A DNA stretch of 64,000 bases from an uncultured Chloroflexia bacterium (lineage in GTDB: Bacteria > Chloroflexota > Limnocylindria > Limnocylindrales > CSP1-4): NCBI GenBank assembly GCA_963725875.1, contig CAVRZZ010000003.1, positions 336,817 through 400,816 on the forward strand. Direction: 5' to 3'. The position numbers were made by a program, and so were the translations under genes. Within the stretch, counting starts at the first letter, position 1. Every line of letters begins with the position of its first letter. Shown here piece by piece: positions 58,811-62,857 of this stretch. A model generated the notes under the pieces. That model did no database searches. It had not been told where the DNA came from and was given only the letters and a program-made list of their open reading frames with translations.

Positions 58811-59097
58811 CCCGGCGGTGCGGAACCGGGCGCCGGGGCGTGCTGCCGGGGATGCTGCCGGGCCGGCGACGCCGCTCGCTCACGGCCTCGTTTGACAGGT
58901 CGGCCCCGAGCGGCGATGCTTGGCGGGTCGAGACGACGCGCCCAGCTGGGTCCGAGCACCGAATGCCCCGCTCTCCGCTCCGCGTCGTCCCCTTCGATCG
59001 CCCCGGCACCACCATCCGCCGGACGAGCGATCGCGCAGCTACCACGACGATCGACCCAACTCGATTCGGGCGATCGTCACGAAAGGATTCCAGGGAC

Positions 59098-59307
59098 ATG
59101 ATGTCCAGGCTCTCCCCGGCGCGGCGTCCAGCCGCTCCGCTCGCGCTCGCCGCGCGAACCGCAGACGCGCGCCGGCGACGGCGGCGCGGCGGCGTCGACG
59201 CGCGCCTCTATTGCGGCACCAACGGGTGCCCCACCACGCTCCAGCTCGACGCCCGAACCGGCGTCGCCGCCTGCCCCATCTGCGGGTTCCAGCGCCGACT
59301 CGCCTGA
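59098..59307 (+). CDS. Small Cys4 zinc-ribbon protein (69 aa)
   Basis: 'YCGTNGCPTTLQLDARTGVAACPICGF'. ATG preceded by AAAGGA. Confidence 0.35.
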   Translation: MMSRLSPARRPAAPLALAARTADARRRRRRGGVDARLYCGTNGCPTTLQLDARTGVAACPICGFQRRLA

Positions 59308-59499
59308 GCCGACCCGGCCGGGCCGACAGCCCGGCATGCGCCGGGGACGGCCTCGGTGTGGACGGGGCTCGTGGACGGACCGTGGACAACCCGTCCGGCG
59401 GGCCGGATTCTCGTGGACAGAACCCCTTGCGGCCGGCGGCGCCGGCAGGCCATCATCTGGTCAGCCCGAAGGGGCCGTGATGAACGGACCGCGGTGCCG

Positions 59500-59690
59500 C
59501 CGCAAGGCGGCCGGGTTCCTCGCAAGGGGAGCCGGGCCCTCCGTCAGGAGGGTCGGCCCTTCCGCAAGGGAGGCGAAGCGGTTCGACGGTCGCACCGGTG
59601 CCGCAAGGTATCGGGCCCGCTCGCAAGAGCGGGAGGTGCTCCGCAAGGAGCGCCACAGCCGCCCGCAAGGGTGGCGAGTCCCCCGCAAGG
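59500..59690 (+). repeat. Array of nine direct copies of YCGCAAGG with ~20-21-bp phasing, upstream of the NitT/TauT ABC operon
   Basis: Copies start near 59500, 59520, 59541 (CCGTCAGG variant), 59562, 59601, 59621 (TCGCAAGA variant), 59641, 59663 and 59683. Spacings are 20, 21, 21, 39, 20, 20, 22, 20. No credible ORF covers the array. Confidence 0.7.
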
Positions 59691-59786
59691 GGGGCGTGGC
59701 GACCGGGTCGGCGGTCCTTTCGGGCGCTTCCTTGCCCTGCGCCCCCCGGGGGGCGCCGCGGCTTCCCGGATGTAGACTCGACCGCG

Positions 59787-60713
59787 ATGGTCCCGCGCGC
59801 CGCCGGCGCGCCCGTTCCGCCCGTCGAGGAGCCCGTGTCCGACGCGCCACTGTCCGACGCGCCACCGTCAGCTGCGCCGCGGTCGGCCGCGACGGCGATC
59901 CGCCTGGCCGCCCTGCGCTTCTCGTTCCCCATCGACGGGCAGCCGGTCCCCGTCCTCGACGGCATCGACCTCGAGGTCGGACCGCGTTCCGTCGTCGCCC
60001 TCGTGGGCCCAAACGGGTGCGGCAAGAGCACCCTCCTCAGGGTCATCGCCGGCCTGCTCCCGGCTGCGGCCGGCACGGTCGAAGTAGAGGGGCGCCCGGT
60101 CGCCGGGCCTGATCCCCGCGTCGGGCTCGTGTTCCAGGAATCGCGGCTGCTCCCCTGGCGCACGGCGCTCGCGAACGTCTCCTTCCCGTTGGAGGTCGCC
60201 GGCCACCCTCGCGCGGCGCGCGAGGCGCGCGCCCGCGACCTCCTGGCGCTCGTCGGCCTCCGCGAGTGGGAGGGGGCGCGCCCCGGGGAGCTCTCCGGCG
60301 GCATGCGGCAGCGGCTGGCGATCGCGCGGGCGCTGGCCCTCGAGCCGTCCGTCCTGCTCCTCGACGAGCCGTTCAGCGCCCTCGACGCCCTGACCCGCGA
60401 GCGCTTCAACGTCGAGCTCCTGCGCCTCTGGGAGCGGATCGGGACGACGATCGTCCTCGTCACCCACAGCATCCCCGAGGCGGTCTTCCTCGCAGACCGC
60501 GTCATCGTGCTGTCGCCGCGCCCGACGGTCGTGGCCGCCGACGTGCCGGTGGACCTGCCGAGGCCGCGCCGGTTGGCGGACCTCGACGCCGCCGCCCTGA
60601 CCCGCACTGCGGCGGTGATCCGGGCCCAGCTCGGTGGCGCCACCGACGACGCCTTCGCGGTCGCCACGGGAACCGTCGGCGAGCATGCCGAGCCCGACGA
60701 GGTCGTGGAATGA
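59787..60713 (+). CDS. ABC transporter ATP-binding protein, NitT/TauT (SsuB/TauB-like) family
   Basis: Walker A 'GPNGCGKST', 'LSGGMRQRLAIARAL', 'LLLDEPFSALD'. First in-frame ATG after the repeat array. Confidence 0.85.
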   Translation: MVPRAAGAPVPPVEEPVSDAPLSDAPPSAAPRSAATAIRLAALRFSFPIDGQPVPVLDGIDLEVGPRSVVALVGPNGCGKSTLLRVIAGLLPAAAGTVEVEGRPVAGPDPRVGLVFQESRLLPWRTALANVSFPLEVAGHPRAAREARARDLLALVGLREWEGARPGELSGGMRQRLAIARALALEPSVLLLDEPFSALDALTRERFNVELLRLWERIGTTIVLVTHSIPEAVFLADRVIVLSPRPTVVAADVPVDLPRPRRLADLDAAALTRTAAVIRAQLGGATDDAFAVATGTVGEHAEPDEVVE

Positions 60714-61465
60714 GCGACACGCGCGGGCGCGTCGTGCTGCCGGCCGTCGCCTTCGTCGGGTTCCTGCTGACCTGGCAGGCGATCGTCTGGATCGGCAGCT
60801 ACCCGACGTTCATCCTGCCCGGCCCGCTCGTCGTGGCCCAGCGCTTCGTCGAGGCGTGGCTCGAGGGGATCTTCTGGCCGCACCTCGTGACGACGCTCGC
60901 GCAGATCGCCGTCGGCTTCACGGTCGGCGCCGCGGCCGCCCTGCCCACCGGGTATGTCCTGGCCCGCTCGCGGCTGGCCAACCGGATCATGTCGCCGTAT
61001 CTCGTGGCGGCCCAGGCGGTCCCGATCCTCGCCCTGGCGCCGCTCATTGCCCTCTGGTTCGGCACCGGGCTGCTGGCCCGCTCGATCATCATCGCCCTGG
61101 TGGTCTTCTTCCCGGTGGCCATCAGCGTGATGGTCGCCATCCGCGGGGTCGATCGCCGCCTCCTCGAGATGGCCCGCAGCTACCGGGTGACTCGCCGGCA
61201 GCGGATCCGCCTCGTGGAGATCCCGGCGGCGCTGCCCGGCATCGTGGGCGGCCTGCGGATCGGGATCACGCTGGCCGTGGTCGGGGCAATCGTCGCCGAG
61301 TGGACCGGCGGCGAGCAGGGCCTGGGCGTCCTGATCAACCTGGCCCGCGGCAGCCTGTTCGACATCCCTCTCCTCTTCGCCACGCTGGTCCTGATCGCCC
61401 TCCTCGGGATCGCGCTCTACGCCAGCGTGCTGGTCGTCGAGCGCCGGGTGCTGGCCCGGTCCTGA
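60710..61465 (+). CDS. ABC transporter permease, NitT/TauT (SsuC/TauC-like) family
   Basis: ATGA overlap with the ATPase stop. Six TM segments and an EAA-like loop 'EMARSYRVTRRQRIRLVEIPAALPGI'. Confidence 0.85.
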   Translation: MSDTRGRVVLPAVAFVGFLLTWQAIVWIGSYPTFILPGPLVVAQRFVEAWLEGIFWPHLVTTLAQIAVGFTVGAAAALPTGYVLARSRLANRIMSPYLVAAQAVPILALAPLIALWFGTGLLARSIIIALVVFFPVAISVMVAIRGVDRRLLEMARSYRVTRRQRIRLVEIPAALPGIVGGLRIGITLAVVGAIVAEWTGGEQGLGVLINLARGSLFDIPLLFATLVLIALLGIALYASVLVVERRVLARS

Positions 61466-61750
61466 CGGCCGGCCGCGCCGCCCCGTCCGGCGGTGCTACG
61501 ATCGCCGCGCCTTCGGGGCAGGGTGCAATCCCCGACCGGTGGTAGCGCCCCCAGGGGCCGAGCCCACGAGTGCCTCGCCGACCGCGACGAGGCGCAGACC
61601 CGACCGCGACCGGTCCGCCGGACGCGCCAGCGGGGCCGACGGTCAGAGTCCGGATGGAAGAAGGCGACGGTGCACGCTCGCGAGCGTGCCGCCGTCCCGT
61701 GTTGCCCCGGGGCCGCATCGCGAGCACGGGAGACACGCGTGACCACCTCG
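61466..61750 (+). promoter_or_regulatory. 285-nt structured spacer inside the ABC transporter operon; candidate cis-regulatory RNA or operator
   Basis: Perfect 18-bp palindrome GCACGCTCGCGAGCGTGC at ~61672-61689, flanked by GGCGACGG/CCGCCGTCC. Further downstream CCCGTG...(GCCCCGGGGC)...CACGGG stem-loop. An earlier 'GGTGCAATCC' resembles part of the cobalamin-riboswitch core, but the B12 box is absent. Confidence 0.25.
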
Positions 61751-62857
61751 ATGAACGACTTCCCGGCGGCCCGGCGCCGCGCCCGCGGCCGGCTGGCCCC
61801 GCTCCTCGGCGGGCTGGCGATCATCGCCGCCGCGTGCGGCGGCGCCGGCTCCGCCACCCCCGGAGCCTCGCCGTCCCCCGCGGCATCCACGCCGGGAGCA
61901 TCCCCAACGCCCGCGCTGCCCTCCCCCACCCCGGCCGAGGCGGTCAAGCTCACCGTCGGGCTGGGCTACATCCCCAGCGTCCAGTTCGCCCAGTTCTACC
62001 TTGCCGACCAGGCGGGCTACTACCGGGACGCTGGCCTCGAGGTCACCTTCCAGAACAAGATCGACCCCGAGCTGATCACCCTCGTCGGCCAGGGCGCCCT
62101 GGACGTGGGGATCGCGGACGGGACGAGCGTCATCCCGGCAGTCAGCCAGGGGATCCCGGTCCGCTACGTCTTCACGGTCTACGCCGACTTCCCGAGCATC
62201 GTCTTCGCCAAGGCGTCGTCGGGGATCCGGACGGCGGCCGACCTGAAGGGCAGGAAGATCGGGATTCCCGGCAAGTACGGGTCGTCGTGGATCCAGCTCC
62301 AGGCGCTCCTCGCCGGCGTGGGGCTCACGCCCGACGACGTCGACGTCGTCCCGTTCCCCGACTTCGGCCAGCTGGCCGCGCTCCAGCAGGGGGTCGTCGA
62401 CGCGGCGACGGGGTTCGTCAACAACGAGCCGGTGCAGATGGAGCTCGCGGGGACGCCGGCCGTCGTGCTGGCCCTGCCGGCCGACGCCCAGCTCCCCGGC
62501 AACGGCCTCATCGTGAGCCAGGCGGCCATCGACGGCCCGAAGGCGGACGCGATCCGCGCCTTCATCGCGGCGACACGGCGGGCGATGGACGAGATCTCCG
62601 CCACCCCCGAGGTCGGCCTCGACGCGGCCGTCGCCCGCATCCCCGAGCTCGCCACCGACCAGGAGACCCAGCTCGCGGTGCTGCAAGCCACGATCGACAC
62701 GTGGCAGAACGATTACACGGCGGCGAACGGGCTGGGGGCGGTCGACGTCACCGCCTGGGAGCGCTCCATCGCGTTCATGAGCAGCCTGCCGGATTCGCCG
62801 GTCGCGAAGCCGGTCACCGCGGCGGACTGCGTCGACGCGACCTTTACCGCGCGATAG
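61751..62857 (+). CDS. ABC transporter substrate-binding lipoprotein, NMT1/THI5-like (SsuA/ThiY-like) family
   Basis: Lipobox 'LLGGLAIIAAACGG', Ser/Pro/Thr-rich linker, then 'KLTVGLGYIPSVQFAQFYLADQAGYY', 'KIGIPGKYGSSW'. Confidence 0.8.
   Translation: MNDFPAARRRARGRLAPLLGGLAIIAAACGGAGSATPGASPSPAASTPGASPTPALPSPTPAEAVKLTVGLGYIPSVQFAQFYLADQAGYYRDAGLEVTFQNKIDPELITLVGQGALDVGIADGTSVIPAVSQGIPVRYVFTVYADFPSIVFAKASSGIRTAADLKGRKIGIPGKYGSSWIQLQALLAGVGLTPDDVDVVPFPDFGQLAALQQGVVDAATGFVNNEPVQMELAGTPAVVLALPADAQLPGNGLIVSQAAIDGPKADAIRAFIAATRRAMDEISATPEVGLDAAVARIPELATDQETQLAVLQATIDTWQNDYTAANGLGAVDVTAWERSIAFMSSLPDSPVAKPVTAADCVDATFTAR

Follow-up and report, generated by a model that had tools for sequence, protein, structure and literature searches.

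Several described systems each resemble some part of the locus reported here. The MAEB motif (metabolism-associated element in Burkholderia; Weinberg et al. 2007, PMC1950547) is a short hairpin repeated head to tail in 2 to 12 copies 5' of metabolic or transport genes; the possibility that it binds protein in the way of CsrB has been discussed. RNAs of the CsrB/RsmZ type are stand-alone, with their own promoter, and carry many hairpins with one loop motif, in a copy number that varies among relatives. Guanidine-II (mini-ykkC) RNAs, often found upstream of transporters, consist of tandem hairpins with freely covarying stems, a conserved 4-nt loop (ACGR) and C-G closing pairs. 6S RNA and Ms1 (the latter of Actinobacteria) are a few hundred nucleotides long, have their own promoter and pair their termini in a long helix. 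At the DNA level, the DnaA-box clusters of oriC, of DnaA-regulated promoters and of datA/DARS-type sites are made of 9-mers matching the consensus TTGTCCACA of Mycobacterium and Streptomyces or TTATCCACA of E. coli and Bacillus (PMC4285127, Table 1).

Our locus lies within a 64-kb stretch of DNA, analyzed as a whole and referred to here as the window, and departs from each of these systems. It holds an array of nine small hairpins, capped by GNRA tetraloops and enclosed by a long-range helix that we call P1. In MAEB the stems, an internal purine pair and the linkers are conserved, whereas in our array conservation is limited to the loop and its closing pairs; MAEB is dispersed over many genomic loci, whereas this array occurs once per locus, within P1; and cmscan found no MAEB match in the window. 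The CsrA motif of CsrB/RsmZ RNAs, A(N)GGA, is exposed in loops, whereas the loops of our array are closed GNRA tetraloops. A CsrA-type reading was ruled out, as GGA follows the loop in only two of the nine units and then lies within the stem, and no CsrB/RsmZ-type family in Rfam matched the array. Guanidine-II has two hairpins with kissing ACGR loops, the window RNA nine with GNRA loops; a cmscan signal for that family at 59339-59383 (19.4 bits against a threshold of 32) falls off the array, on DnaA-box-like GGACGG motifs in a stretch that is partly not conserved across homologues, and was discarded. 6S and Ms1 each form a rod interrupted by a central bubble, while the interior here is a bouquet of tetraloop hairpins, and Ms1 adjoins genes for a HAD-IB hydrolase and an oxidoreductase; a 6S- or Ms1-like identity was ruled out by the different synteny and shape and by the failure of the Rfam 6S models to match. 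Rfam 15 gave no match at the gathering score in the window or in the class-2 and class-3 loci, and only chance-level hits at E<=10, in keeping with the first-pass annotation, which had recognized no described class in the array. A literature search of incomplete coverage likewise returned no description of such a hairpin-array RNA. The 64 kb as a whole, at ~75% G+C, contains no Rfam family at the gathering score, tRNA, rRNA and riboswitch families included.

The first-pass annotation had described nine phased direct repeats of an 8-mer, YCGCAAGG or a close variant. The repeat and its spacings are reproduced exactly by the tetraloop starts listed below: between 59494 and 59700 on the forward strand, nine YCG(C/U)(A/C)AG(G/A) motifs follow one another at 20, 21, 21, 39, 20, 20, 22 and 20 nt. 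Exact YCGCAAGG occurs seven times within 190 nt on this strand, and 15 times on both strands of the 64-kb window against an expected 4.3 +/- 2.1. This clustering is not a product of chance: when the window was simulated 500 times with a first-order Markov model as a shuffle-type control, there were never more than 2 copies in 200 nt, compared with the 7 observed. Nor does an open reading frame account for the array, as had also been noted; a coding reading was ruled out because the units do not follow one another at multiples of 3 nt and the indels of homologues are not in frame. Tandem Repeats Finder detected two copies, because the units have only the 8-mer in common. The array is a repeat of structure rather than of sequence. 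Searches of plasmid and viral collections gave no similar sequence, and a scan of a genome collection for three CGCAAGG motifs at 11-17 nt spacing returned, among the matches listed, almost exclusively simple tandem repeats and repeats within coding sequence (RKAEEE-type, collagen-like).

Each 8-mer is a GNRA tetraloop with two closing pairs (C-G and C/U-G) at the top of a hairpin stem. The loop is GCAA in eight of the nine hairpins and GUCA in the remaining one, and the stems, 6-8 bp in total with 4-6 pairs below the closing pairs, all differ in sequence. The 20-21 nt period is made up of two stem arms, the loop and a linker of 1-3 nt. Scanning the whole window for GCAA-loop hairpins with stems of at least 5 bp yielded eight on the forward strand, all in the array, and two unrelated hairpins on the reverse strand. 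Folded as forward-strand RNA, 59464-59745 has a free energy of -190.8 kcal/mol and a z score of -6.5 relative to dinucleotide shuffles; for 59400-59790 the z score is -4.4 on the forward strand and -2.2 on the reverse strand. In this fold P1, a helix of 14-18 bp between the 5' end and a segment ~245 nt further on, closes two multibranch domains of four and five hairpins, with the following elements.

59464 to 59481, forward strand: 5' strand of P1, GCCCGAAGGGGCCGUGAU; alignment columns 2-15 pair with columns 306-319 in 42 of 42 class-1 sequences
59485 to 59585, forward strand: Domain I, a helix of 59485-59492 with 59578-59585 around hairpins H1 to H4
59502-59505 (GCAA), 59522-59525 (GCAA), 59543-59546 (GUCA) and 59564-59567 (GCAA), forward strand: loops of Domain I
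59587 to 59705, forward strand: Domain II, a helix of 59587-59593 with 59699-59705 around hairpins H5 to H9
59603, 59623, 59643, 59665 and 59685, forward strand: starts of the five GCAA loops of Domain II
59707 to 59725, forward strand: 3' strand of P1, GUCGGCGGUCCUUUCGGGC, from the fold and the alignment
59726 to 59738, forward strand: U-enriched tail, GCUUCCUUGCCCU; family pattern GC-YUUY-NN-UG-YCC

What were taken for nine direct repeats are the tips of RNA hairpins, a feature of RNA and not an array of DNA binding sites. The earlier remark that a transcript would present repeated GCAAGG motifs pointed in the right direction. We propose that the region from 59464 to about 59738 on the forward strand encodes a structured RNA of ~265-275 nt, whose 5' end would be the first base of P1, G59464.

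Homologous loci were reached by two routes. Syntenic loci identified through the downstream binding protein (83-67% protein identity) carry the array in six of six cases, so that it is kept upstream of orthologous operons, a check that the first-pass annotation had proposed. A metagenome scan with a pattern of P1 plus the first two loops gave 60 loci: 46 have the gene order of the window (zinc-ribbon ORF, RNA, ATPase-permease-binding protein), which we call class 1, five belong to a second class described below, five represent an unrelated GNRA-rich region and four are chance matches. Dense GNRA-capped hairpins (GAAA, GCAA) were seen in an unrelated group of near-identical contigs (L150, at about 1600-1900 on the minus strand as stored, with L151, L172, L177 and L178); this run has no Rfam match and no recognizable flanking genes, and may be a different hairpin-rich RNA.

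An alignment of 42 distinct class-1 sequences (A2) provides the main evidence for the fold. RNAalifold recovered the hairpins and P1 from it. With the minimum free energy structure of the window placed on the alignment, 90.7% of cells are standard pairs, compared with at most 52% after displacement of the partners by 1-3 columns. Seventeen base pairs have changed on both sides, and the covariation score of 0.227 (0.163 +/- 0.003 in shuffles) was reached by none of 500 shuffles; class-1 diversity comes essentially from two sub-lineages, and because most of it lies between them, these cell counts overstate the number of independent events, many double changes being few events counted repeatedly. 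The nine hairpins within a single sequence serve as an internal control, in that one cap sits on nine different stems. In Domain I, covariation is seen, for example, at columns 28:163 (CG<->UA), 100:109 (CG<->AU) and 120:133 (CG<->UA); in Domain II it is seen in H5, H6 and H7. G:U pairs make up ~17% of stem pairs and are fixed at positions in both P1 and the stems (columns 12:309 are G:U in 42 of 42 sequences), indicating that the forward strand is the RNA.

Sequence conservation is concentrated in the loops and P1. Column entropy is 0.09 bit in each of these, 0.18 in the closing pairs, 0.44 in the outer stems and 0.82 in the linkers and junctions. Within the loop, G and A are invariant and the N and R positions vary by only 0.23 and 0.15 bit; the tally is 328 GCAA loops and 28 other GNRA-like ones (10 GUCA, 9 GUAA, 8 GAAA and 1 GCGA). 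Unit spacing, in contrast to the regular period in the window, ranges from 18 to 24 nt in homologues, one of which has two additional units. Helical phasing is thus not maintained, and the idea that the repeats all face one side of the duplex is not supported. The array region shows the compensatory change and strand asymmetry of a structured RNA and neither property of an iteron array, namely repeats conserved in sequence without pairing and a spacing held to helical phase.

Upstream of P1 lie a promoter-like element and a group of 9-mers resembling DnaA boxes.

59357-59365, 59370-59378, 59381-59389 and 59412-59420, reverse strand: cluster of DnaA-box-like 9-mers, YYRTCCACR
59427 to 59456, forward strand: promoter-like element, TTGCGG at 59427-59432, an 18-nt variable spacer and CATCAT at 59451-59456

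The -10-like CATCAT, which is GATCAT in most homologues, stands 7 nt before G59464. Other sub-classes have TTGACC-N17/18-TATCGT, TATGGT or TAACTT, then 7 nt, then GCCCG; four sub-classes thus agree in their geometry, and the point at which conservation breaks off is immediately before GCCCG. We infer from this arrangement that transcription from the -35/-10 pair would begin (+1) at G59464, where P1 starts. A scan for consensus promoters and terminators in this ~75% G+C DNA flagged nothing, the element at 59427-59456 included. The position of the array between the zinc-ribbon gene and the ATPase gene, as first annotated, stands; its description as part of a plain 480-nt leader does not, because the array has a promoter-like element of its own.

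The last DnaA-box-like motif ends 6 nt before the -35-like hexamer, and the cluster lies 80-145 bp upstream of the array. Four of the window's 16 matches to YYRTCCACR fall within these 64 nt (59357-59420). Across 42 class-1 upstream sequences, CGTGGAC, CGTGGATAA and TCGTGGACAG form invariant islands separated by variable spacers, followed in order by CCCTTGCG, a variable 18-nt spacer, GC(G/C)ATCATC, 5-6 variable bases and the invariant AGCCCGAAGGGG. Class-2 loci contain a perfect TTGTCCACA, and every sub-class examined has three to five DnaA-box-like 9-mers within ~100 bp, so that several clustered, conserved 9-mers close to TTATCCACA or TTGTCCACA recur throughout. These islands are consistent with sites bound by DnaA that would control the RNA promoter. 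Neither an AT-rich unwinding element nor a dnaA or dnaN gene was found near the cluster. For this reason we do not read it as an oriC, and it differs from known DnaA-box clusters also in abutting the promoter of a structured RNA; a literature search of incomplete coverage found no DnaA-box cluster described at a noncoding RNA promoter. In one contig, 3.2 perfect tandem copies of a 69-nt unit lie upstream of the DnaA-box-like cluster of a minimal form of the RNA, described below (L194:4545-4764).

At the other end of the RNA, the 10 nt after P1 are 30-60% U, a three- to fourfold enrichment over the 13% of the window, and this tail is kept in every sub-class examined. It falls below the rule of our terminator scan (at least 5 T in 8), and the stem before it is the long-range P1 rather than a simple hairpin. 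The tail is a candidate for a weak intrinsic terminator tract or for a protected RNA 3' end.

The genes flanking the RNA, and one further conserved element, are as follows.

59098 to 59307, forward strand: zinc-ribbon protein of 69 aa, Arg-rich, a conserved ORF
59772 to 59778, forward strand: GTAGACT, present in 42 of 42 distinct class-1 loci
59835 to 60713, forward strand: ATPase of a NitT/TauT-type ABC transporter, GTG start, Shine-Dalgarno (SD) sequence GAGGAG at 59826-59831
60710 to 61465: permease, followed by an NMT1/THI5-type binding protein at 61748 to 62857

The ATPase had been assigned an ATG start at 59787; the GTG at 59835, with GAGGAG ahead of it, is the more likely start. GTAGACT lies at a variable distance after P1 (26-101 nt) and, in loci with an SD pattern match, at a nearly constant one before the SD and GTG start (55-58 nt, 57 in most). 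A common form of the -10 element is TANNNT, which TAGACT fits, and we regard TAGACT as the candidate -10 of a separate promoter for the ABC operon. Given an invariant element held at a near-constant distance from the ABC start, the operon apparently does not need read-through from the RNA; it probably has its own promoter, and the class-1 RNA may be largely a separate transcript. In the interval from 59772 to 59835, a conserved palindrome comes after GTAGACT, within the ~50 nt ahead of the SD and GTG start of the ATPase; it reads GCGCGCC-N3-GGCGCGC in the window and has a varying loop in relatives. The two elements may be a promoter belonging to the operon and a hairpin in its leader.

The zinc-ribbon gene lies directly upstream of the RNA in all class-1 loci and is missing from class-2 loci. 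Its product (CGTNGCPT...CPICGF, with an N-terminal ARRPAAPL..ARRRRRR) is conserved in ~30 protein clusters and has no Pfam match even at E<=10 and no significant PDB sequence match. An AF2 model (pLDDT 71) gave only a generic zinc ribbon in Foldseek, with no significant fold match, and the label "L32" attached to one homologue by one source was found to be unsupported. It is by position only that the protein may be linked to the RNA. Upstream of this ORF we noted a perfect TTGACA at 58892-58897, a 17-nt spacer, GATGCT and then ~170 nt of untranslated sequence, part of which (gggtccgagcacc..gc.ccgctc.ccgc) is kept in syntenic loci.

The second class places the RNA in a different setting, between an RDD-family gene and punA (PNP_UDP_1), followed by rpiB; it comprises the five metagenome loci and others found through the purine nucleoside phosphorylase. 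These loci keep P1 (GCCCGAAGGGGCC... / ...GGUUCCUUCGGGC) and the tail, and in the punA context enclose about five to seven mostly GNRA-capped hairpins. One group has five GCAA hairpins and a hairpin with a conserved loop, GAGAUCACAUCAA (z = -7.9); in class 2b (L188-L193), the caps are a mixture of GCGA, GUGA and GCAA, together with some loops outside the GNRA pattern. The punA ribosome-binding site lies ~20 nt beyond the tail, which leaves no room for another promoter, and the class-2 RNA must therefore be a leader. A role in cis is better supported for punA than for the operon in this window.

Two minimal forms (L194 and L195:4897-4975), from the punA-rpiB context as well, are ~90 nt long and consist of P1, ~50 nt including a hairpin with the loop GAGAUYACAUCAA, and the tail. 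They have no GNRA array, and their P1 carries a compensatory A-U to G-C change. L138, L187, L188, L194 and L195 have in common a conserved hairpin whose stem covaries and whose loop reads G(A/C)GAUYRCAUCAA(A), with an inner GAU/AUC mini-stem between GA and AA; this type of hairpin is missing from the class-1 RNA of the window and is a candidate protein- or ligand-binding motif. At the other extreme, a class-1 homologue (L127:1685-2009, minus strand) has 11 hairpins, with two extra H2-like units (…TCATCGCAAGGTG…) after H1 that point to unit duplication. Family members thus carry from none to 11 GNRA-capped hairpins, and classes 1 and 2 have in common only P1, the tail and the GNRA caps. Since P1, promoter and tail are kept while the array varies or is absent, these three elements form the core of the family, and the GNRA array represents an addition, made in particular lineages, to the interior of a conserved RNA that P1 closes. 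The drift of class-2b loops and the lack of an array in minimal members also indicate that GCAA loops are not essential to the core function.

Among named homologues, those closest to the binding protein and to the purine nucleoside phosphorylase come from metagenome-assembled genomes (MAGs) labelled Chloroflexota, Chloroflexi or Candidatus Limnocylindrales, with one homologous protein labelled Nanopelagicales and one Patescibacteria; this taxonomy is that of the names attached to MAG proteins only.

Together, these data lead us to favor, with moderate confidence, a structured RNA delimited by P1 and the tail, with a body of GNRA hairpins and with read-through into downstream genes at least in class 2. 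Transcription would start at G59464 from a promoter controlled via the adjacent DnaA-box-like sites, and P1 with the U-rich tail would act as a terminator or as an end-protecting stem. The product would be a discrete RNA that resists nucleases, or else an attenuating leader. Read-through would reach punA-rpiB in class 2 and, here, the ABC operon, which probably also has its own promoter. The GNRA hairpins would form a compact, multivalent body in which the nearly invariant GCAA loops do more than cap helices and make contacts, either in tertiary packing or with a multivalent partner; consistent with loop recognition, the N and R positions of the loops are more conserved than the stems.

The same loop conservation could also reflect a sponge or scaffold acting in trans, in which the nine (in the family, 5-11) near-identical C-GCAA-G tips would titrate a hypothetical RNA-binding protein in the manner of CsrB/RsmZ, with P1 only stabilizing the ends. 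We consider this account unlikely, although it draws on several observations: loop sequences, N and R included, are better conserved than stems and linkers, hairpin number varies through unit duplication, the RNA has its own promoter while the class-1 ABC operon apparently has a separate one, and the adjacent Arg-rich zinc-ribbon protein, one candidate partner, is encoded next to the RNA in every class-1 locus. That gene is absent from class-2 loci, however, the loops of class 2b drift to other GNRA and non-GNRA sequences, and the minimal members have no array with which to titrate anything. C(GCAA)G is a very stable hairpin cap and could have been kept simply as such, and with GGA in only two of nine motifs any protein bound would not be of the CsrA type. 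A more elaborate proposal joins both ideas to the upstream sites. A new class of bacterial regulatory RNA, its transcription set by the replication initiator DnaA through the boxes next to its promoter, would use its multivalent bouquet of 5-11 GCAA loops to sequester a tetraloop-binding protein or to self-associate via tetraloop-helix contacts, linking replication or the cell cycle to punA-rpiB nucleoside salvage and NMT1-type ABC uptake; we offer this as speculation that is unlikely to hold.

It is more doubtful still that the array is a non-adaptive or weakly selected expansion, in which GC-rich hairpins multiplied by tandem duplication in a tolerant loop of a leader RNA, like expansion segments or REP-like palindromes, under the sole requirement that P1 be left undisturbed. 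The absence of the array from minimal members, its lineage-dependent size and the poor conservation of its linkers would all fit. Against this, the nine hairpins are kept position by position across sub-lineages whose binding proteins are ~67% identical, their stems are maintained by compensatory changes, and their loops are nearly invariant. Dispersed copies, too, are lacking: the 64-kb window has no CC-GCAA-GG hairpin outside the array, no second copy of the RNA and no punA, and each 13-kb locus holds a single copy, on which grounds a REP or other dispersed palindrome was rejected.

A metabolite riboswitch, for example a purine-related one, controlling both punA-rpiB and the NMT1-type ABC transporter is very improbable. 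The RNA is co-oriented with and upstream of two transport or salvage operons, its architecture is closed by P1, and class-2 and minimal forms have the conserved hairpin with the GAGAUYACAUCAA loop. But that hairpin is missing in class 1, where the interior contains only generic GNRA hairpins, no Rfam family matches, and junction nucleotides are not conserved between classes. No set of pocket nucleotides is common to all members; the linkers and junctions, at 0.82 bit, are instead the least conserved positions, which makes a riboswitch unlikely for class 1 in particular. For the minimal form it is possible.

Finally, the reading suggested by the first-pass annotation, in which an oligomerizing regulator of the ABC operon would bind phased sites on duplex DNA (an iteron-like array or a cooperative operator), is scarcely tenable. 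In its favor are the regular ~20-21 bp period in the window and the existence of a genuine cluster resembling DNA sites, that of the DnaA-box-like motifs, although this lies 80-145 bp upstream of the array. Against it, the 8-mers are the centers of inverted repeats whose arms differ from copy to copy and covary as base pairs with compensatory changes, G:U pairs are fixed, the structure is strand-asymmetric and the spacing drifts in homologues.

The structured RNA that we favor is a candidate for a new family of RNAs, or for a greatly expanded version of such a family, from uncultured high-GC bacteria. For genome annotation, the lesson of the locus is to look for hairpin symmetry before "phased direct repeats" of GC-rich intergenic DNA are taken at face value. 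If the inferences drawn here hold, an undescribed family of structured RNAs is present in an uncultured, environmentally widespread high-GC lineage, which the names of the closest homologues suggest to be Chloroflexota, probably class Limnocylindria. Its members would combine an unusual trio of features: a P1 helix running from the first transcribed base to a U-rich tract, an interior that has expanded from no GNRA hairpins to 11, and a conserved DnaA-box-like cluster at the promoter. The minimal, 5-, 9- and 11-hairpin forms would then constitute a natural series in which to ask what GNRA arrays do in vivo, and the upstream sites would offer a testable case of DnaA acting on the promoter of a noncoding RNA.
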